In this document: piece by piece, positions 5,949 to 21,763 of the stretch
Numbering within the stretch: the first letter of the stretch is position 1
Layout of the letters: every line of letters begins with the position of its first letter
Assembly: GCA_040395835.1 (NCBI GenBank)
Contig: JBEBPQ010000025.1
Coordinates: forward strand, 13,174 to 45,173
Direction: 5' to 3'
DNA from: Advenella kashmirensis
Lineage (GTDB): Bacteria > Pseudomonadota > Gammaproteobacteria > Burkholderiales > Burkholderiaceae_B
Length of the DNA: 32,000 bases
The notes under the pieces: model-generated
Databases searched by the model: none
Told to the model about the DNA's origin: nothing
The model's input: only the letters and a program-made list of their open reading frames with translations
Program-made: the position numbers and the translations under genes

Positions 5949-6288
5949 GCGGATAATCCTCTAGGGAAGCTTGACGGCTGCGGGCGCCGCCCGGGAATGA
6001 TTATAGTAACGCAATCGAGCCGCCTGCCGCAGCGGATGCCCGGCGCTGTCGATACAAAGGTATTGGATGTGCTCTGCCTGGATGGTACTGCGTTGCGCCG
6101 GGGTGCGGTATGATTGCATTCCAGAGGCGCATTGTCGCCATCTTCATAGCGTGAAATCAGGTTGTCGTCTGCGTAGCATGGGGTGCAGCCGGGCACAGGA
6201 CGCAAGCCTTCGCTGGCGCGCTGGCCGATGACTGCCTGTCGTGGTGAAGGGATTGGCGGGTTGTTCAACTTATTTTTTAATAATTCCA

Positions 6289-7782
6289 ATGTATAAGAAA
6301 TTGCTTGCCCTGGTTTTTGCCTTGATTGGCATGGTCTTGTGCGTGAACGCATTCGCACAATATAACGTCGGATCGATCCCCAATCCGAAGAGTCGGGGCG
6401 CCGCACATTATGTGAGCGACCCGGACGGCTACCTGAGCGCCGCCACGATCGCGGACCTGGATGCGATCAGCGGCGGGATCGAGAACGCCAATGGTAGCGA
6501 ATTCGCCATCGTGGTCGTGAGTGATTACCAAGGGGCCAGCGATTTTGATTTCGCCCTCGATCTGTTCGGCCATTGGGGTATCGGCAAGCAAGGCAGCAAT
6601 AATGGCCTCTTGTTGTTCCTGGCGATGAACCGGCATGAATATCGGTTTATCAGCGGCTATGGCGTAGAGGGTATTTTTCCCGACGCGCGGCTCAAACAGA
6701 TCGGGGAGCAATTCCTGGTGCCTTACCTGCGGGCCGGCAATACGGATATGGCGGTGCTGTCCGCGGCAAAGGCGGTTGAAAGTGTCTTTCTTTCACCGGT
6801 GAACGAATTAGAGCTGGCGGGGTTGAAAGCATATCAACCCACATTCTGGAATTTGCATGCCGATGTGCTGCAACAATGCGGTGGTGTATTTGCGATTTTC
6901 GCGATCGGCCATCTGTGGATGACGGCAGCCCGCAAGCGGGTGTTGAAGCGGTTCGCGATTAAAAGCGGCCGATACCGGGGCAATGCGATCTGGTATGCGT
7001 TTTTTACTTTCCTGTTTCTTTTATTCCTTACCCTGTTTGTATTCGTGTTTTTCGAGGCGGTTGAGCAGGCCTACCAGTTCAAGCATCTTCCGTATTTTCT
7101 GATGGCTTTCGGCTCATTGGTATTGGCGTATCAATATTACGGATGTCGATTTTTTCTGCAGCGGGCGACTAAAGATAAAAAGATTGCCATGGACATGCAG
7201 GTATCATTCACCAGCCTGAGCCTGTTGCCATTACTGCTTGCCCCCTTTGCCTACCTGGGATACGCCGATCTGGGAAAAACTAGGAAAAATGCACGCTTGC
7301 GGGCCACACCTCCGTCGGAGCCGGGCGATTGGCTGCGTCTCAACCGGGACGATCTGACATCCGAACAATTAAAGCAATACCTGAGCAAGCAGCAATTGCA
7401 GGAGGAACGGCTGGACGCCAAATCCTATGAGATCTGGCGTGAGCGGGCTAGTGGAAAAATCAGTATTCATGCCTTCGATGGCACCAATATCGGGTTATAT
7501 GGGGTTTGTCCACAATGTCATGGCCAGACGTTGGCGCAGCCGGCGTTGAAAACCATCAAGGCGCCAACCTATACGGAAAAAGGGCAGGGAGAGCGGATCC
7601 AGGCTTGCAAGTCCTGTGATTATAAAAAATCGCTGGGTATGATTGTGCTACCGGTTCTGCAGAGCAGTTCCTCCAGTTCCAGCTCCGGTTCCAGTTCAGG
7701 AGGCGGCGGGGGTGGCAGCAGTTCCGGCGGCAGTTTTGGCGGCGGCTCGAGCGGCGGCGGCGGAGCCGGCGGCCGATGGTAG
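6289..7782 (+). CDS. TPM-domain (YgcG-like) membrane protein with multi-TM core, CxxC...CxxC module and Ser/Gly tail
   Basis: Preferred start is the ATG at 6289 (MYKKLLALVFALIGMVLCVNAFA| signal peptide); the track starts at a GTG at 6241. TPM pattern: VSDPDGYLSAATIADLDAISGGIENANGSEFAIVVVSDYQG...GLLLFLAMNRHEYRFISGYG. Then 4-5 hydrophobic helices, CPQCHG-x27-CKSCDY, and a Ser/Gly tail. Confidence 0.85.
   Translation: MYKKLLALVFALIGMVLCVNAFAQYNVGSIPNPKSRGAAHYVSDPDGYLSAATIADLDAISGGIENANGSEFAIVVVSDYQGASDFDFALDLFGHWGIGKQGSNNGLLLFLAMNRHEYRFISGYGVEGIFPDARLKQIGEQFLVPYLRAGNTDMAVLSAAKAVESVFLSPVNELELAGLKAYQPTFWNLHADVLQQCGGVFAIFAIGHLWMTAARKRVLKRFAIKSGRYRGNAIWYAFFTFLFLLFLTLFVFVFFEAVEQAYQFKHLPYFLMAFGSLVLAYQYYGCRFFLQRATKDKKIAMDMQVSFTSLSLLPLLLAPFAYLGYADLGKTRKNARLRATPPSEPGDWLRLNRDDLTSEQLKQYLSKQQLQEERLDAKSYEIWRERASGKISIHAFDGTNIGLYGVCPQCHGQTLAQPALKTIKAPTYTEKGQGERIQACKSCDYKKSLGMIVLPVLQSSSSSSSSGSSSGGGGGGSSSGGSFGGGSSGGGGAGGRW
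7663..7773 (+). repeat. Low-complexity Ser/Gly-coding tract (37 codons)
   Basis: SSSSSSSSGSSSGGGGGGSSSGGSFGGGSSGGGGAGG, encoded by reiterated agc/agt/tcc and ggc/ggt/gga codons at the 3' end of CDS 6289..7782. Confidence 0.6.
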
Positions 7783-14372: not shown

Positions 14373-16109
14373 TTACTGTTTGCCAGCGGCCGTCCGCATT
14401 TCCCTGGCGCGCATGAGAATGGCCGGGATTCTCAAGATGACGTCGCGATCTTTCTGTTTTTCCGGTTCGGGCAAATGCTCCCAGTCCACCAGCGAGGGAT
14501 GCTGGCGCCGCACATCGTCGCGTTGTTCCCCAAACCGCCAGCCATTGAGATATCTATTGGCGGACCAGCGTTCATGCTCGACTTTGGCCAGCAGTTCAAC
14601 TTGTTCCGGATTGAAGGCAACATGTTCTGACGCATCTTGTTGACTGCCCAATTGTCCTGTCATGGCCAGCTTATACGGGATGTGATCCGCCTGCATACGG
14701 CTGGCTTCCTTTGCCTCTTCCAGCAAGTCGTCCCAACCCGTCTTGAACGCGGCGCTTTCACTGGCGCTATGGCCGGTCAATTGTTGCAGGTAATCTTCAT
14801 GAATGGCCCGCGCTTGCGTATCCTGCAGTTGCCGGGTGATGAATTCTATCTGGCAAATGGATTCGATACTGCCAAAAAATGACAGGCGGGATAGCTGATT
14901 GTGTTTGGGTCTGAACAGCGCATTCAAGCCTTCATTGTGGTAATTGAGCGCAAATATCTTGAACTTGGACAATGAAGTCGCTCTCAAGATCTCAAGCGAC
15001 CATTTCAGGTTGACGCTATCTTCCTCGAAAGCGGTGATTAGCAATGGCACAATATCGGGCGTCAGGTCCTGCAGGTGGTCCTTCAGGATCGCTTCATAGG
15101 AACCGTCATATTCCTCGAAAGTGAGCTTGGCGACCTGTCTCGCGCCCGAGTACTCAGAATGGAAGGTCTTTTCCAGTTTGCTCGCGTCGGGGGCGCAGAT
15201 GACGATTTCCGGACTCGCGCTATTGAGAGTATGCAATACCTGTAGGGCATGTACGAGCAAGGCTTTCATTGTATCGCCCGCACCCAGGAAAACCAGTCGA
15301 AAGCGAGATGCCGGATCGGCCAGCTCCGCGGTATATTCGACCGGCAACTGGGCGAAGAAGTGGCGCGCGATCATTTGATGGTGGTTGAAAAAACGCAGAT
15401 CAAGGCCGCTTTCGCGCTCTTCCTGGAAATAATCCGATTGCTGCAGCATGGTCACGACTCTGGCGTTGTTGACATGCAAAAAACATTGCAGCCGGTAGCG
15501 ATCCGGTTTGGCCTGAACCAGATTGTGCAGGGCTCGCGTGACATTGATTGTTGCCTGTTCGTTATCCAGAAAGCAAATCACATACCTGGCCTTGGCGATG
15601 CCGGCTTCGATCAGGGCAGGGGGTTGGGTCGCATCTCCATTGAACAGCAGATGGCCCTGGCGCCTAACAGTGTTGGTGTTTCTGTGCGTATTACTGATTT
15701 CAAGCGCAACACCGGTCGTGTCATGATTTGTCTTCAGGTCATCGAGTAGCGCCAGCCCCTTGTTGCCGATACCGATAACCAATACCGGCTGTTTTTTAAA
15801 GAGCAGGCGCAATTGCGTGTAGTATTCGTAAAACAGCGCTTCGGCGATTTTGTACATGCCGGCCAGCAGGCCGACGGTCACGGCGATTTTCGCCAATGTC
15901 AGTTGCCAGGGCAGGGAGTCGTCTGCCAGCTTGCCGGAGACCGGATCCGCGCCCATCAGTGTCTTCAGTGTCCTGTAGATTTTGTCCGGCAGGTACATCC
16001 ATTCATTACTATCTGGATAGTAAACGCCCAATCCCACCCATGTCAGGACGATGATGGCAATCCCTGCCAGCAGAACGAGGATGCTTTTGAGACGGTGGGA
16101 CATTTTCAT
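14373..16109 (-). CDS. Membrane protein: 2 TM helices + two TrkA_N/RCK-like Rossmann modules + C-terminal RyR (ryanodine-receptor repeat) domain (578 aa)
   Basis: ATG at 16107-16109 overlaps the stop of the upstream TIR gene (ATGA). TM1 SILVLLAGIAIIVLTWVGLGVYY; TM2 WQLTLAKIAVTVGLLAGMYKIA. Rossmann 1: VLVIGIGNKGLALLDDL...GDATQPPALIEAGIAKARYVICFLDNEQATINV. Rossmann 2: LVFLGAGDTMKALL. RyR: LLAKVEHERWSANRYLNGWRFGEQRDDVRRQHPSLVDWEHLPEPEKQKDRDVILRIPAIL. Confidence 0.85.
   Translation of the reverse strand: MKMSHRLKSILVLLAGIAIIVLTWVGLGVYYPDSNEWMYLPDKIYRTLKTLMGADPVSGKLADDSLPWQLTLAKIAVTVGLLAGMYKIAEALFYEYYTQLRLLFKKQPVLVIGIGNKGLALLDDLKTNHDTTGVALEISNTHRNTNTVRRQGHLLFNGDATQPPALIEAGIAKARYVICFLDNEQATINVTRALHNLVQAKPDRYRLQCFLHVNNARVVTMLQQSDYFQEERESGLDLRFFNHHQMIARHFFAQLPVEYTAELADPASRFRLVFLGAGDTMKALLVHALQVLHTLNSASPEIVICAPDASKLEKTFHSEYSGARQVAKLTFEEYDGSYEAILKDHLQDLTPDIVPLLITAFEEDSVNLKWSLEILRATSLSKFKIFALNYHNEGLNALFRPKHNQLSRLSFFGSIESICQIEFITRQLQDTQARAIHEDYLQQLTGHSASESAAFKTGWDDLLEEAKEASRMQADHIPYKLAMTGQLGSQQDASEHVAFNPEQVELLAKVEHERWSANRYLNGWRFGEQRDDVRRQHPSLVDWEHLPEPEKQKDRDVILRIPAILMRAREMRTAAGKQ
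14400..14828 (-). other. RyR-domain region of CDS 14373..16109 (clear C-terminal copy, possibly a degenerate upstream copy)
   Basis: aa about 503-566 match the bacterial RyR consensus as I recall it (E-H-x-R-W...GW-x-[YF]G...HP-x-LV-x-[WY]-x-x-LP-x-x-EK-x-KDR). aa about 430-485 (ARAIHEDYLQQL...GWDDLLEEAKEASRMQADHI) look like a weaker related helical repeat. Confidence 0.6.
15435..15791 (-). other. First TrkA_N/RCK-type NAD-binding-fold module of CDS 14373..16109
   Basis: GxGxxG (GIGNKG), followed by an acidic residue at the end of beta-2 (ALE) and the GDAT...L..AGI..A..VI.....D..N motif characteristic of TrkA_N. Confidence 0.65.
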
Positions 16110-19100
16110 TTCATTTCTCTTGTGATATTGGCTCGAGCCCGATTCAGGATAACGCGAGTCTGGGCTTTGAGCTTTTCGTCGGGAATTTTTGACAGTTGCA
16201 GTTCCGTCATCCGAATCAGGCCATCGGCCACGAAACCGGTGGCTGCTTGACGGCTGAAATAATCAGCCATCGCCGCCCGGGCCAGTGGATGAAAACGCCA
16301 ATATTTGTCGAGCAACCGCAAGTTTGCGTCTACGTCCTTGTTTACCCATTTGGCGAGATAGTCTGCCGTCGTCTGCTTCGAGCCTGGCAACATGGGGCGC
16401 GAGTATGGATTCTGGAAAAACCATGACGCAGGCATATGTTCACCCGCGGCGAGGTCATTGACGGAGCCCGTGCTTGTATCGTATTGTTTGCCGTAGTAGG
16501 TCTCGGCCAGCGTGGCAAGCTGCCCGACCTCATTCTGGGGCACCGTAGGTACGTCCCATATATTGAGGATCGACTGGTCGGTAGTGAAATCAAGGGTCAC
16601 GACACGCTGCTCGTTCTGCAATAGGAAGACGTAATCGATCTTGCTCATGCCAAATGGCATGCTCACCGGCAGGCCGGTAGCGGCATCGAAGATGGCGATG
16701 CCTCTTTCAGTGCCCGAATCTCCCGAGTCGGTGGTAAATATAGTACGGCCGTCCTTGGAAAATAGCAGAAATTTGCCAGCGGTATCATTCTTGATCTTCT
16801 GGCCGATCGCCTGTTTTTTCTCCAGATCCCACAGCCGGATATATTTGGCATCTTCGGCCACTGCCAGTATTTTTCCATCCGGGCTTAGATCCGATTTCGG
16901 CACATTGCCGTAGGTGGGGATAGTGATCCGCTTTTTGAAGTCCTCCATATCGTAAAGATCGATCTTGTTTTCGCGAAATGCCAGCAGGTAGCGATCTTCA
17001 CCGATGAAACTGGCGCCGGTAAGGTGGCTGCGCTCCTGATACAGGGTCTGGCCGGTTTTGATGTCGATAATTTGCCACTGGCCATCGGCTTTGAGCGTCA
17101 GAATCTTCGAAAAATCTTGCGACAGCTGATAGCGCACTTTGGGCGGCAACGCAAATTCTCGGATACGTTTACCGGTCTGAATTTCCCAGATGCCCATCGT
17201 GTCCTTACTTAAACGGCCCGATGACAACACGCCCGCCTGATCGAGCAATATATTCTTCCCTTCGATCACAATCGGCTGGCCCAGTGGCGTGCCGGTGGTT
17301 GCCTGAAAAAAACGGACTTCGCGCCGTTGGTCCGCCAGATCGGTGATGGTATAGACGAAATCATGTTTTCTGCTGACGCCGAAATCCTTGATGATCTTGC
17401 CGACTTGAATAAACTTGGGCTGTTGCTTGCCATCCTCCAGATTCCACTGATCCAGGCTGGTGCCCTCCTTCTTCAGTACCAGCACTGTTTTGCTGTCGGG
17501 AACAGTCTGGACATTGACAACGTCGCTTCCCAGTTGAACTTGGTTGCGCAATAAGGACGGACCCTGATCCGTGATCAGGTTGCGGACTCCCTGTTGATTC
17601 TTTGTACTTTGTGTGAGATCGGGGGCAATCACGTCCTCTTCGGGCGGCAGGAGCTCTTTAAAATTGATTGGCGCAGTGCCCGATGTTACTTTGCGGTCCG
17701 TGTTTCGATCGAAGACAGTGTATTGCTGATATGTGGCGGCAACCGCTGTCTTGCCGTCAGGATTGAAATAAACGGCGATTATCGGATTGTCCATGGAAAT
17801 GGAGACCGGCTGCCCACCGGGCTGGTCAAGCCTGATATGGAAGAGGGACTCCGAGTTATAGAAAAACAGACTCTTTGACTCGGGATCAAAGACAGGCCTG
17901 CCATCGTCTATCGGTAGCTGGTACTCCTCCGAGGACAGGACCGTGCTATCGGTCTGGAATCGGTAGACCCTAATTTTTGTGCTGTTGTTTTCCGAGTTGG
18001 AGAAAGCCACGGTCCTGGAATCGGGTGCAATAAGCACACGCTCGAAGCCGAGGCGAGTGGACGACAGGCTCGGTACCGATTCGACCACGACTTTTCCTGA
18101 CGCGACGCTATAGACGGTTGTCAGGTTTTTGCCCGACTGTTGATTCTCGGACACCCATCCTTGCAGAACCAGCCAGTTGCCGTCTGGGCTTACGCTGAAC
18201 TGGCCGATACGCAGCTTGGCAGGCGGGCGATAGACGATTTCGGCTTCGTTGCCGTCCTGCCAACGCACCACCTGGCTTTTGGCATTAAGGAAGAAAAGCC
18301 GGTTATTCCTGTCAAAATGCATCGACGCATTAAGAATGGACGTTGGCAGATCGAACTGGCTCAGCTCCCGATACAGACGCCTGGCGACAACGTCCCAGAT
18401 CTGCAAATTCTGCTTCTTCCCGGAGGCGTCTATCTGCACCGCAAGCCAGCGACCATTCGGACTGAACACGGGCGCGCTGGAGGCTTTGGGAATGGGGGTA
18501 ATGCCGTTTTGCCGCATCAGCATCGACTGGACATACACGGCCGCCTGCGTATTTCCCAGCCGGCTTGCGGCGGCCATATAGGCCGCGCCTTCGCCCATTT
18601 CACTTTCGTTGATCTTGTTGATGCCCGATAAATACAACGAACGGGTGAGCATTTGTTGCGCGTTGTTGCGCTCATTCCAGGCGAATATGCCAAGGATGAT
18701 CGCCATGATTGCCAGCAGCCCGATGACGATCGCAATGCGTTTAACGACCCGGTGTCGCTGTTGCGCCTTGGCCAACTGATAAGCTTGATCACGTTTGGTC
18801 AGCTCGCCCAGGGGGATATCGAGCAGTCCGGCAATGATCTTGAGCTTGGCCAGATCCAACTGGGCCTTGTACTCCGCCACTTTGCGATCTATTGCCTTGC
18901 TGCCCAGTCCGTTTTTGCTTTGCCTTAGGTGATGGCGATAGGCCTCGAACGAGGTATATCCCTGCTCGGACGAGTTGGGCAGGCGCACATCCGCGGCCAG
19001 TGGCTCCTGGCGCGTTTCCTGATCGATGGCGCCATTTTCGTCGATCCGGTAGCGTAATACTTCCGGAAAACATTGCAGTTCGTCGGTATCTTCACCGTAT

Positions 19101-19522
19101 TGGGGGTCGCCGTCGAGAATCAGGGCGATGATTTTATCGGCGCGACCGATCTGCTTGAACCAGCGTATTTCCTCGGCAACGTAGGTCGACCGGGCCGAAC
19201 GCGGCGAAGCCAGGTACACCAGATGCGCCGATTGGGTCAGGGCCTGTCGCAGTGCGGTCGAGAGATTGGCGCTGGCGGAGAGTTCCTTTTCGTCCTGGAA
19301 TACCGGGTAGATTTGCGCGGGAATAGTGTCGCCCGAGCGATTTTTTGAACCAACCAGATCGGCGGGGACTTCGTAAGTCTCGAGTTCATGATGTAGCCAG
19401 TCCGCCCATTTGCGGCCTTCTTGCCGGTTATCCGAATGGCTGTAGCTGATGAACGCAATATATTTATTTGTCTCTTTATTTGTGTTGTCAATCGCGGTTT
19501 CCATAGCACCATGTCCGAACAT
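16106..19522 (-). CDS. TIR-domain / single-TM / WD40(PD40)-like beta-propeller protein (about 1138 aa), Toll-like-receptor-type topology
   Basis: The start is uncertain: ATG at 19522 (AGGA 11 nt upstream) or ATG at 19504. The track start at 19672 is a TTG with no RBS, and its first 50 aa are Arg/Cys/His junk. Domain evidence is in the sub-features below. Stop TGA at 16106-16108. Confidence 0.85.
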   Translation of the reverse strand: MFGHGAMETAIDNTNKETNKYIAFISYSHSDNRQEGRKWADWLHHELETYEVPADLVGSKNRSGDTIPAQIYPVFQDEKELSASANLSTALRQALTQSAHLVYLASPRSARSTYVAEEIRWFKQIGRADKIIALILDGDPQYGEDTDELQCFPEVLRYRIDENGAIDQETRQEPLAADVRLPNSSEQGYTSFEAYRHHLRQSKNGLGSKAIDRKVAEYKAQLDLAKLKIIAGLLDIPLGELTKRDQAYQLAKAQQRHRVVKRIAIVIGLLAIMAIILGIFAWNERNNAQQMLTRSLYLSGINKINESEMGEGAAYMAAASRLGNTQAAVYVQSMLMRQNGITPIPKASSAPVFSPNGRWLAVQIDASGKKQNLQIWDVVARRLYRELSQFDLPTSILNASMHFDRNNRLFFLNAKSQVVRWQDGNEAEIVYRPPAKLRIGQFSVSPDGNWLVLQGWVSENQQSGKNLTTVYSVASGKVVVESVPSLSSTRLGFERVLIAPDSRTVAFSNSENNSTKIRVYRFQTDSTVLSSEEYQLPIDDGRPVFDPESKSLFFYNSESLFHIRLDQPGGQPVSISMDNPIIAVYFNPDGKTAVAATYQQYTVFDRNTDRKVTSGTAPINFKELLPPEEDVIAPDLTQSTKNQQGVRNLITDQGPSLLRNQVQLGSDVVNVQTVPDSKTVLVLKKEGTSLDQWNLEDGKQQPKFIQVGKIIKDFGVSRKHDFVYTITDLADQRREVRFFQATTGTPLGQPIVIEGKNILLDQAGVLSSGRLSKDTMGIWEIQTGKRIREFALPPKVRYQLSQDFSKILTLKADGQWQIIDIKTGQTLYQERSHLTGASFIGEDRYLLAFRENKIDLYDMEDFKKRITIPTYGNVPKSDLSPDGKILAVAEDAKYIRLWDLEKKQAIGQKIKNDTAGKFLLFSKDGRTIFTTDSGDSGTERGIAIFDAATGLPVSMPFGMSKIDYVFLLQNEQRVVTLDFTTDQSILNIWDVPTVPQNEVGQLATLAETYYGKQYDTSTGSVNDLAAGEHMPASWFFQNPYSRPMLPGSKQTTADYLAKWVNKDVDANLRLLDKYWRFHPLARAAMADYFSRQAATGFVADGLIRMTELQLSKIPDEKLKAQTRVILNRARANITREMK
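16535..18475 (-). other. Beta-propeller (WD40/PD40-like) repeat region of CDS 16106..19522, predicted extracytoplasmic
   Basis: Recurrent blade motifs: FSPNGRWLAVQ, VSPDGNWLVLQ, IAPDSRTVAFS, FDPESKSLFFY, FNPDGKTAVAA, LSQDFSKILTL, LSPDGKILAVA..IRLWD, FSKDGRTIFTT, ILNIWD. The spacing suggests one large or two tandem propellers. Confidence 0.65.
18677..18736 (-). other. Predicted transmembrane helix of CDS 16106..19522
   Basis: RIAIVIGLLAIMAIILGIFAW, preceded by a basic cluster (KAQQRHRVVKR). By the positive-inside rule this places the TIR domain in the cytoplasm and the propeller outside. Confidence 0.7.
19103..19462 (-). other. TIR domain of CDS 16106..19522
   Basis: KYIAFISYSHSDNRQEGRKWADWLHHELE...IYPVFQDEKELSASANLSTALRQALTQSAHLVYLASPRSARSTYVAEEIRWFKQ...KIIALILDGDP follows the bacterial TIR_2 pattern (FISYS / F.D...L..G / ..V.L.SP....S.W...E). 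Confidence 0.75.
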
Positions 19523-19696
19523 AAGACCGACAATCCTGCTTTTTAACTGAAAGCGGCAATGAAGACAATAGGCGAGTCCCCATGACGATCGAAATGATGT
19601 ATCGGAATGTGAATAGTGACAACCATGGCATTGGCGGCGCGGGCGCCGCGTTCCCTGGTTGTCGCGCGGCAAGTGCGATTTTGCCGATGTTCGCTG

Positions 19697-21076: not shown

Positions 21077-21763
21077 TTGTCAAGAAAAAACTTGGAAAAT
21101 TGGCGTGCAGAGCTAGGCTCGACCTCGGAACGGCTGTTGCTGTTGTTGAAGACGCGCGGCCCGCAGCAATCGATGGCGGCTGGCAAGTTGCTGGGTACGA
21201 CGTCCGAAGCGGTACGGCAGCAGTTCGTGAAGTTGGCGGATGCCGGGCTGGTCGAATCTTTCTCGCAAACCAGGGGCGTTGGCCGTCCCAGTCAATTCTG
21301 GAAATTGACGCAGGCGGGCCACAAGCGTTTTCCAGACAGCCATGCCGAATTGACCATGCAACTGCTCGATACCGTCAGGCAGGTGTACGGAGAAGCAGCG
21401 ATTGAACAACTGATTGATGCCCGGGAACAGGCGAGCGAAGCGCGCTATTCACAGGAAATGGCCGGACTGGAGGGGCTGAGCGCGCGCATGGAAAAGCTGG
21501 CGGACTTGCGATCCGCGGAGGGTTATATGGCGCAGGTCGAGGCGCGGGAGGATGGGGCGTTGCTGCTGGTGGAAAACCATTGCCCCATTTGCGCGGCAGC
21601 AACGGCATGCCAGGGGTTCTGTCGTTCCGAAAGAATGGTGTTCGAGCGCGTGCTGCAGGCGCGGGTCGAGCGGGTTGAGCATATCCTGAACCAGGCACGG
21701 CGTTGCGCCTATGTCGTCAGCCCGCTATCGATCAGTTCGCCTGAAAACCAGAAAAAGCGCTAA
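21077..21763 (+). CDS. ArsR-like winged-helix transcriptional regulator with C-terminal Cys-containing domain (COG2345-like)
   Basis: TTG start at 21077 with SD AAGGAA 6 nt upstream; no in-frame ATG precedes the HTH. SERLLLLLKTRGPQQSMAAGKLLGTTSEAVRQQFVKLADAGLVE...GVGRPSQFWKLTQAGHKRFPDSH. C-terminal ENHCPICAAATACQGFCRSE. Confidence 0.8.
   Translation: MSRKNLENWRAELGSTSERLLLLLKTRGPQQSMAAGKLLGTTSEAVRQQFVKLADAGLVESFSQTRGVGRPSQFWKLTQAGHKRFPDSHAELTMQLLDTVRQVYGEAAIEQLIDAREQASEARYSQEMAGLEGLSARMEKLADLRSAEGYMAQVEAREDGALLLVENHCPICAAATACQGFCRSERMVFERVLQARVERVEHILNQARRCAYVVSPLSISSPENQKKR

Follow-up and report, generated by a model that had tools for sequence, protein, structure and literature searches.

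The window analysed here, a 32,000-nucleotide stretch of Advenella kashmirensis contig JBEBPQ010000025.1, carries on its minus strand a gene for a membrane protein that combines RCK and RyR domains, preceded by a gene for a TIR-domain protein (Table 1). The RCK-RyR gene starts with ATG and encodes 578 amino acids. Its product consists, from the N to the C terminus, of a two-transmembrane-helix (2-TM) core, tandem RCK modules and tandem RyR repeats, an architecture that we regard as highly probable. Pfam recognizes TrkA_N at residues 109-200 (E 1.6e-12; 48.2 bits with a cutoff of 23.8), directly after the second transmembrane helix (TM2), and RyR at residues 503-558 (E 3.2e-13; 50.2 bits with a cutoff of 27.4), while the AlphaFold2 (AF2) model of the full-length protein (predicted local distance difference test (pLDDT) 84, predicted template modelling score (pTM) 0.79) displays two successive α/β modules. 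Weak NCBIfam likeness to the RCK regions of KefC, TrkA and Kch is also seen. As determined by Kyte-Doolittle analysis, TM1 is strongly hydrophobic (about residues 5-30, up to 2.65) and TM2 moderately so (about residues 68-95). Hydropathy and Pfam bear out the order given in an initial annotation of this DNA, namely TM1, IYRTLKTLMGADP (residues 44-56, the pore-helix/loop region), TM2 (WQLTLAKIAVTVGLLAGMY, residues 68-86) and a TrkA_N module immediately thereafter. Since the N terminus is rich in Lys and Arg, it is placed on the cytoplasmic side.

The N-terminal 105 residues are best read as a predicted pore-loop channel-like fold. A Foldseek search with the full model returned as best PDB match the full-length GsuK channel (4gx2_B, E 5e-8, 510-540 of 547 columns), with further matches to TrkA, MthK, CASTOR, Slo and RyR3 R12. 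The RCK-only chain of GsuK reached E 4.6e-5 over 400 columns; the full-length channel surpasses it by a 1000-fold better E-value and about 110-140 additional columns, and hence the membrane part contributes both columns and score. A model of the isolated N-terminal domain, computed from 40 family sequences (pLDDT 75), comprises helices 5-30, 37-51 and 68-105, and all of its top 50 matches among 350,542 PDB chains are pore-loop tetrameric cation channels, including HCN1, MthK, KcsA, TREK-1, NaK, Kv1.2, Kir7.1, the AMPA and NMDA receptor pores and TRPM3 (TM-scores of 0.47/0.48 for KcsA and 0.43-0.52 for MthK); the similarity to channel pore domains that the initial annotation had proposed to look for thus appears at the level of predicted structure. 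In agreement, hhalign aligned the profile of 135 family N termini with that of five pores (KcsA, MthK, NaK, KvAP and Shaker, their sequences validated against PDB) over 82 columns (Prob 39%, P 3e-4) with TM1, pore helix, filter and TM2 in register, compared with Prob 0.4-0.5% and 14-15 columns for two reversed-sequence controls. By predicted structure, this succession of TM1, pore helix, loop and TM2 would place the protein in the pore-loop superfamily. Both AF2 and the hhalign superposition onto the K+-channel pore helix and filter locate a candidate pore helix at residues 37-51, followed at the filter position by the loop 'LMGADPVSG...LP'. Conserved positions of the re-entrant segment are D42, Y45, L48, Q49, L50, F51 and P67, and those of TM2, whose helix runs on into RCK1, are W68, L70, A73, R/K74, L76 and F93.

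By sequence, however, the protein is not a K+ channel. A regular-expression search for T-[VI]-G-[YF]-G at the loop found the motif neither in the protein itself nor in the 149 best family representatives; the 'TIGYG' of one relative, P0060, lies at residue 775, outside any Ion_trans_2 domain. Together with Pfam, this upholds the earlier statement that a canonical K+ filter is missing, and of the likeness to 2-TM RCK-gated K+ channels then proposed, the pore-loop core with tandem RCK modules stands and the K+ channel does not. An alignment of 136 members yields the family-wide loop motif D-xx-Y-xx-LQLF-x-LE-SG...P-x-PW, with conservation of G26, D42, Y45, L48-Q49-L50-F51, (L)E-SG and P67-W68-x-L70-E-x-A73-R74-x-L76-x-P78, and hhalign sets F-x-L-E followed by S-G opposite T-T-V-G followed by Y-G. 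In the TIR-linked subfamily to which the protein belongs, the loop reads TLMG[ASN]DP. As D55-P56-V57-S58 is a four-residue insertion specific to this subfamily and missing in 112 of the 136 members, 'LMGADP' is not a conserved relic of a filter, and its former description as a degenerate filter is not supported. The acidic loop residue, E54 in the wider family and D55 in the TIR-linked subfamily, may by analogy recall non-K+ pore-loop channels such as CASTOR, an RCK-ring Ca2+ channel that lacks TVGYG and in whose filter, AD265S(A)GNHA, D265 gives Ca2+ selectivity (PMC6697748). Conservation within the subfamily amounts to 0.64 for the pore helix/loop and 0.61 for TM2, versus 0.58 for RCK1 and 0.54 for RCK2. 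The membrane domain is therefore as constrained as the soluble domains, which speaks against decay as well as against a purely anchoring role and renders the earlier idea of a channel fossil kept only for anchoring unlikely. For ion conduction by the predicted pore, we judge the chances to be even.

The cytoplasmic part displays the features of an RCK/KTN gating ring, namely a TrkA_N Rossmann fold with GxGxxG and two RCK modules in tandem. RCK1 carries the intact motif as GIGNKG at residues 113-118 (G113, G115 and G118), and E137 ends β2; G113 is retained in 134 and G118 in 130 of 135 sequences, and both GxGxxG and E137 are kept family-wide. Its Foldseek matches are the RCK domains of TrkA, GsuK and MthK, and an adenine nucleotide is probably bound in its Rossmann site as well. 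In RCK2 the motif has degenerated to GAGDTM (residues 276-281), at a place where the broad-family consensus retains GxGxxG. The two Rossmann modules reported previously, the first with an intact motif and the second with GAGDTM, are thus found in both sequence and AF2 model. As a unit, the tandem superposes on TrkA (4j9v_A, 413 columns, root-mean-square deviation 5.3, TMt 0.48), on the GsuK RCK structure 4gvl (400 columns) and on the CASTOR ring (462 columns), and two RCK modules per subunit fit a 4 x 2 gating ring.

The C terminus is a tandem RY12-like RyR module of two repeats, which would enclose a pseudo-symmetric ligand cleft of four helices. A RyR domain had been recognized before, and Pfam supports it, but it is not single: hhalign aligned a first, cryptic repeat with repeat 2 (residues 496-578) at Prob 98.4% and E 1e-14 (5% for the reversed control). 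In repeat 1, which carries an eight-residue deletion in the GW-YG loop, H437 and Y440 are invariant and occupy the places of H512 and W515. Sequence matches of the C terminus in PDB comprise RyR repeats (E 3e-23 to 1e-13) and a Bacteroides RyR domain (3e-11); RyR3 R12 aligns at E 1e-15, and Foldseek superposes about 160-183 columns on it. The view that the function of RyR domains in bacteria is essentially unknown has been overtaken by two 2026 preprints, according to which phage PF02026 proteins either bind the TIR signals 2'/3'cADPR (cyclic ADP-ribose, cADPR) at nanomolar affinity or cleave them (PMC13232231; 10.64898/2026.06.04.730250). RyDEP binds 2'/3'cADPR through H75/W78/H100/D117, and the majority of its homologues are nanomolar sponges (PMC13232231), whereas RyR Tad (vB_PatP_CB1 gp68) binds 3'cADPR, 2'cADPR and cADPR via H129/W132, K147/H154 and K170/D171 (10.64898/2026.06.04.730250). 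Residues 129-171 of RyR Tad gp68 (L090:42142-42693) align by BLASTP without gaps to residues 512-554 of our protein (E 1e-9), with H129/W132/K147/H154/K170/D171 opposite H512/W515/R530/H537/K553/D554; the RyDEP residues were mapped by their identical spacing and through this alignment. Repeat 2 thus has a complete pocket of the glyco-cyclic ADP-ribose (gcADPR) type. All six residues are found in 23/23 members of the TIR-linked subfamily, while in the wider family position 537 is His in 37/113 and position 553 Lys in 37/113. A set that is fixed in the subfamily and variable at two positions elsewhere suggests that the pocket has been tuned to, and co-adapted with, the TIR partner, and the module is rather likely to bind a TIR product. 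The RY12 module of RyR1 binds ADP and ATP (PMC13642953, September 2026); that article counts 'putative tetrameric cation channels' among the prokaryotic RY12 homologues and mentions neither TIR nor RCK. As a separate observation, 76 phage records, among them those of Pseudomonas N4-like, Aeromonas and Arthrobacter phages, encode open reading frames (ORFs) resembling RyR repeat 2, most of which are designated hypothetical; one of these ORFs is labelled 'Anti-CRISPR protein'.

The maximal ORF of the TIR gene (16106..19672) opens with TTG, the start assumed initially; translation is more likely to begin at Met51 or Met57 (19522 or 19504), giving a protein of about 1,132-1,138 residues. Besides its TIR_2 domain (E 8e-10), it has a ThsB_TIR Pfam match. 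The motif SPRSARSTYVAEEI aligns with SKNYASSTWCLEEL of Roq1 ('SSTWCLEEL'), and the catalytic Glu, E168 in ORF numbering, is invariant in 22 orthologues. Hydropathy reveals no second hydrophobic segment besides the helix at residues 312-334, and Lys and Arg residues ahead of this helix indicate that the TIR domain is cytoplasmic and that the propellers are periplasmic. The predicted topology is therefore that of a Toll-like receptor, with cytoplasmic TIR, one transmembrane helix and periplasmic β-propellers. Conservation is highest in the TIR domain (0.78) and falls to its lowest values in the propellers (0.46-0.47). These fastest-evolving periplasmic propellers span about 850 residues and are accompanied by some 140 C-terminal residues that have no assignment.

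In all of the more than 27 orthologous loci with upstream DNA, a gene for a TIR-transmembrane-propeller protein adjoins the RCK-RyR gene upstream on the same strand. This count covers four metagenomic or genomic contexts and the subfamily loci with upstream DNA in a scan of species-representative genomes, which was run with a 14-sequence alignment and whose closest match, in an Advenella genome, had 59% identity. The four-nucleotide overlap of the two genes recurs, or is replaced by direct abutment, in loci L001, L004 and L008. Partner orthologues measure 1,102-1,190 residues (phmmer E 1e-81 to 1e-107), and the paired loci belong to Advenella, Sphingobacterium, Dentiradicibacter, Brachymonas, Diaphorobacter, Comamonadaceae, Neisseriaceae, Cardiobacteriaceae and Propionivibrio. 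The TIR neighbour and its pairing with the RCK-RyR gene, both noted at the outset, are thus substantiated by the TIR_2 match, the ATGA overlap and their conservation, and we consider the two genes very probably functionally paired. A TIR domain with its catalytic Glu and a distinct putative effector gene in one operon would also make this a Thoeris-type arrangement.

In the window, the cassette is flanked by genes for LeuA, AraC, GGT, TctC, LysR and MFS proteins; around orthologous loci the flanks vary by taxon, with housekeeping genes in L001, L004 and L008. The guanine-plus-cytosine (GC) content of the cassette (positions 15001-18000) is 52-54%, against 56-62% in the flanks, and this dip, together with the unrelated flanks elsewhere, fits horizontal acquisition. 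The cassette is thus a mobile two-gene unit outside defence islands. A scan for promoters and terminators gave no signal above chance. Two further genes of the window, both on the plus strand, are apparently unrelated to the cassette: one for a 513-residue TPM-phosphatase-domain protein (6241-7782) and a 228-residue ORF that has no Pfam match (21077-21763).

Table 1. Features of the two-gene cassette, in window coordinates (all on the minus strand).
Feature	Position	Strand	Basis
RCK-RyR gene (2-TM / tandem RCK / tandem RyR membrane protein)	14373..16109	-	ORF, Pfam, AF2
TM1, residues 5-30	16020..16097	-	Hydropathy, AF2 helix 5-30, G26 in 132/133
Periplasm-facing re-entrant segment, residues 31-67 (predicted)	15909..16019	-	AF2 helix 37-51, hhalign, conservation
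TM2 / inner-helix equivalent, residues 68-95	15825..15908	-	Hydropathy, AF2 helix 68-104
RCK1 / TrkA_N Rossmann module, residues 109-260	15330..15785	-	Pfam TrkA_N, conservation, Foldseek
RCK2-like second Rossmann module, residues 269-420	14850..15305	-	AF2 β-α-β, Foldseek
Cryptic RyR repeat 1, residues 426-490	14640..14834	-	hhalign versus repeat 2; undetected by Pfam
RyR repeat 2, residues 496-578	14376..14624	-	Pfam RyR, PDB RyR R12 matches, BLASTP
ATGA overlap of partner stop and RCK-RyR start, translational coupling	16106..16109	-	Sequence
Partner gene (TIR / single TM helix / periplasmic β-propellers)	16106..19522	-	Pfam TIR_2, PD40, WD40-type propellers
Cytoplasmic TIR domain of partner, catalytic-Glu motif 'STYVAEEI'	19103..19453	-	TIR_2 E 8e-10, alignment to Roq1
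Single TM helix of partner, residues 312-334	18671..18739	-	Hydropathy up to 3.06
Periplasmic β-propeller (PD40/WD40-like) sensor region of partner	16523..18670	-	Pfam propeller families

The RCK-RyR protein belongs to a large, essentially uncharacterised family of more than 3,400 clusters at 50% identity, spread over many phyla and some archaea. A search of representative sequences gave 18,049 matches at E≤1e-3, of which the 3,417 clusters reaching E≤1e-30 have this architecture in common; the top 150 matches are all full-length. Members at 23-30% identity occur in Planctomycetota, Chloroflexota, Acidobacteriota, Armatimonadota, Ignavibacteria, Actinomycetota and Methanomassiliicoccaceae. The last of these, represented by the metagenome-assembled genomes (MAGs) L069 and L086, have members of 754-758 residues and carry the architecture beyond bacteria, provided that the contigs are correctly binned. 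Among ten long members we found no fusions to TIR or true K+-channel domains; their extra parts are further RyR repeats and one DUF3616.

Distant members have no fixed partner, and the proteins that they repeatedly adjoin are hallmarks of prokaryotic conflict systems: TIR_2-WD40 proteins (L051, L057, L070), DUF4062-NACHT-TPR/WD40 proteins (L044, L064), NACHT-TPR or NACHT-WD40 proteins (L058, L062) and an FGE-sulfatase protein (L035). In an Anaerolineaceae MAG, a gene for a 901-residue TIR_2-CHAT(caspase-like)-AAA_16 protein starts 3 nucleotides past the stop of the family member (L073:3455-6157), which links TIR to the family independently and in another architecture. RyR domains fused to AAA (847-964 residues) or RelA/SpoT (L036:8532-11075, L083:8629-11523 and L078:3671-6268) and a 200-residue double-RyR protein (L060:5582-6184) likewise lie beside family members and suggest a wider bacterial network of RyR-based nucleotide sensing. 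Proteins with the N-terminal motif 'GVTGHR(D/F)L' that match no Pfam entry also recur beside distant members, in long forms of 632-634 residues with C-terminal transmembrane helices (L061:8449-10353, L071, L077, L082) and in a form of 215 residues (L049:6306-6953). Their genes often overlap the stop codon of the channel gene, and they may be SLOG-like.

GsuK of Geobacter sulfurreducens (PDB 4GX0-4GX5) shares with the RCK-RyR protein a 2-TM pore domain followed by two RCK domains per subunit and an adenine dinucleotide/nucleotide site in RCK. Unlike it, GsuK possesses a canonical K+ filter but no RyR module, the identity is only about 11%, and the RCK-RyR protein in turn is devoid of an Ion_trans_2 signature. 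The plant nuclear channels CASTOR, POLLUX and DMI1 resemble it in combining a pore loop with a tandem-RCK ring and in an acidic loop residue, yet CASTOR is eukaryotic and Ca2+-gated, has four extra transmembrane helices and a filter sequence unrelated to our loop, and is not associated with a RyR domain or a TIR partner. With animal ryanodine receptors, which are tetrameric pore-loop cation channels with a tandem RyR-repeat nucleotide-binding module (RY12 / Repeat12), the fold correspondence extends over about 180 columns; those receptors comprise about 5,000 residues, six transmembrane helices and many other domains and have no RCK ring, and the resemblance may reflect modular re-use rather than orthology of the whole channels. 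The phage anti-Thoeris proteins RyDEP (phage DyoEdafos) and RyR Tad have the PF02026 fold and the ligand and catalytic residues in common with the RCK-RyR protein. They are small, soluble, dimeric counter-defence factors, whereas the RCK-RyR protein is host-encoded, membrane-embedded, fused to RCK modules and a channel-like core, and paired with a putative signal-making enzyme.

Among Thoeris systems, a systematic survey, as represented by its text and parts of its supplements, lists 29 putative types including the validated type X, whose effector ThsK is called an 'ion channel' and whose signal was not identified; a RyR/TrkA/WD40/propeller system was not found in that text or those supplement parts (10.64898/2025.12.03.692087). 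Type X resembles our operon as a two-gene TIR system with a pore-loop-like membrane effector. Its ThsB, however, is a ThsB_TIR protein of about 160 residues that is unrelated to the TIR_2-transmembrane-propeller partner of about 1,130 residues (BLASTP E 0.7), and its effector, a 208-residue protein with the motif 'AIYLSVANAFTLTYGGFSP' (TLTYGGFSP), lacks RCK and RyR domains and gives no meaningful alignment with the RCK-RyR protein. Direct comparison of TIR and effector with the type X operon L091 thereby rules out that the cassette is type X Thoeris. The presumed type X effector itself (L091:3369-3995; 208 residues, two flanking ThsB genes, Vibrio) has a pore-loop-like motif and no Pfam annotation and may be a degenerate P-loop channel. 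Type X provides a precedent for a TIR protein with a channel-like effector, and as sensor (TIR-transmembrane-propeller), receiver (RY12-type) and gating apparatus (tandem RCK) of the cassette all differ from it, the cassette is new within a known kind. The Macro-transmembrane effectors of the ThsC type in type II Thoeris, like other nucleotide-activated effectors that disrupt membranes, would correspond to the proposed mode of action, with a TIR-derived ADPR-type ligand, a cytoplasmic sensor fused to transmembrane helices and membrane failure as outcome; their sensor is a Macro domain, and their transmembrane part is devoid of pore-loop/RCK architecture.

We tentatively propose that the RCK-RyR protein is the effector subunit of a mobile two-gene TIR module, although the complete chain from signal to membrane failure falls somewhat short of an even chance. 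An envelope or phage cue would cluster the periplasmic propellers of the partner and thereby switch on its TIR domain, which would turn NAD+ into a signal of the cyclic ADP-ribose type. The receiving protein would be a homologue of tetramer-type pore-loop channels, with a 2-TM core and re-entrant helix but no K+ filter, and in the cytoplasm its tandem RCK modules would assemble into a ring of the kind known from GsuK, TrkA and CASTOR, on which the RY12-like tandem RyR module would sit as a cap. Binding of the TIR product in the RyR pocket would be passed on by the RCK ring to the inner helices, opening a cation pore that is not K+-selective, possibly by way of a ring of acidic residues (D55 here, E54 in the wider family). 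The open pore would collapse the membrane potential or ion homeostasis and lead to growth arrest or abortive infection. The TIR or DUF4062 neighbours that distant members have acquired independently (L051, L057, L070, L073, L044, L064) also speak for the proposal. Rather doubtful is the bolder version in which the operon is a minimal prokaryotic 'cADPR opens ryanodine receptor' axis, with one cADPR isomer, made by a membrane-anchored TIR cyclase of Toll-like-receptor type, directly gating a tetrameric, possibly Ca2+-permeable pore-loop channel through the RY12-type module. In that case the protein would be the first RyR-domain immune receptor encoded by a host, and the operon a tractable model of how RY12 domains convert nucleotide binding into gating.

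Several results weigh against this proposal. Pfam gave no Ion_trans_2 match, either for the full-length protein at E≤1 or for nine N-terminal segments at E≤10, and the family profile of residues 1-105 retrieved no channel from PDB at E≤10. With the sequence searches free of channels, the pore assignment derives entirely from structure prediction and profile-profile comparison. The Foldseek E-values of the isolated domain are 0.5-2 (best 0.54), none of them individually significant, and the loop at the filter position has a pLDDT of 56-66 and no known selectivity motif. There is no defence island around the cassette in the window or in the orthologous loci examined; PADLOC assigned 0 families to the RCK-RyR protein and only weak partial TIR matches to the partner (E 7e-4 to 0.04). 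As for the TIR domain of the partner, it could be a simple NADase that synthesizes no signal. The RyR proteins of phages work as sponges or as enzymes, not as switches, so that ligand binding need not imply gating, and with the H/D dyad (H512/D554) present, the protein might degrade the signal instead.

This last point leads to an alternative in which the RCK-RyR protein is a sink or regulator of the signal. The RyDEP catalytic dyad H75/D117 corresponds to H512/D554, both invariant, and every characterised non-animal RyR-domain protein is a sponge or a hydrolase. The 2-TM part would then be an anchoring and oligomerising scaffold beside the TIR protein, and the RyR module would sequester the TIR product or cleave it as a RyDEP-like glycosidase; signalling would be buffered or ended, or autoimmunity prevented, and the real toxicity would be the consumption of NAD+ by TIR. 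The lack of a recognisable selectivity filter and the non-significant E-values of the isolated domain also suit such a role. We nevertheless consider it unlikely, because a simple anchor would drift, whereas the polar residues D42, Y45, Q49, E54/D55 and R/K74 of pore helix/loop and TM2 are conserved on a par with the soluble domains. Moreover, the tandem-RCK ring sits directly on TM2, as the gating apparatus of GsuK and MthK does, and sponge-type phage homologues hold the same dyad and yet do not catalyse, so that the dyad is no predictor of enzyme activity.

The same molecular logic could also serve non-immune envelope or environment sensing, in which the channel tunes ion homeostasis or motility as part of housekeeping signalling. 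The metabolic and housekeeping flanks in the window, in Advenella and at other loci, the missing defence island, the absence of a PADLOC hit and a periplasmic sensor, unlike most phage sensors, speak for this reading. It appears improbable to us in view of the patchy cross-phylum distribution, unrelated flanks and GC dip, which mark a mobile cassette typical of defence genes. The sensor region is diversifying, distant members lie beside NACHT/STAND, CHAT, DUF4062 and FGE-sulfatase conflict-system proteins, and phages encode RyR-domain anti-Thoeris proteins.

Distinctly improbable, in our view, is a channel gated by NAD status, with the Rossmann site of RCK1 as primary sensor, TIR acting as NADase and a fall in NAD+ or a rise in ADPR gating the pore; the RyR module would then sense ATP/ADP in an accessory role, like that suggested for RY12 of RyR1. 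The family-wide GxGxxG and acidic E137 of RCK1 agree with such a site, as does the closest structure, GsuK, which was determined in complex with NAD and ADP and is modulated by NAD+ and ADP, and binding of ADP and ATP to RyR1 RY12 (PMC13642953) is in line with the accessory role. In contrast, the TIR-linked subfamily has fixed the gcADPR-contact set (H537 and K553 in 23/23, against 37/113 in the wider family), and longer paralogues multiply their RyR repeats, not their RCK domains. Finally, an ordinary RCK-gated K+ channel of the MthK/GsuK/Kch type that merely happens to lie beside a TIR gene would match the overall GsuK-like architecture and the weak NCBIfam likeness to KefC, TrkA and Kch but is effectively refuted by the filter motif being absent from all 149 relatives, by the lack of any Ion_trans_2 hit at E≤10 and by the TIR gene itself, with which the RCK-RyR gene strictly co-occurs and is translationally coupled.

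Direct action of cADPR on ryanodine receptors has been a matter of dispute for decades, and direct gating remains unproven. In the cassette described here, one small, clonable bacterial operon unites a TIR enzyme, an RY12-type module with a complete cADPR-contact set and a predicted pore-loop channel-like core. If the proposed flow from signal to pore holds, RCK/RyR-gated channels would represent a new class of Thoeris-like effectors and might be what the RyR sponges of phages mimic on the host side, and the partner would be a transmembrane TIR sensor with Toll-like-receptor-like topology. The operon would then also offer a simple system for the coupling of RY12 to a pore.

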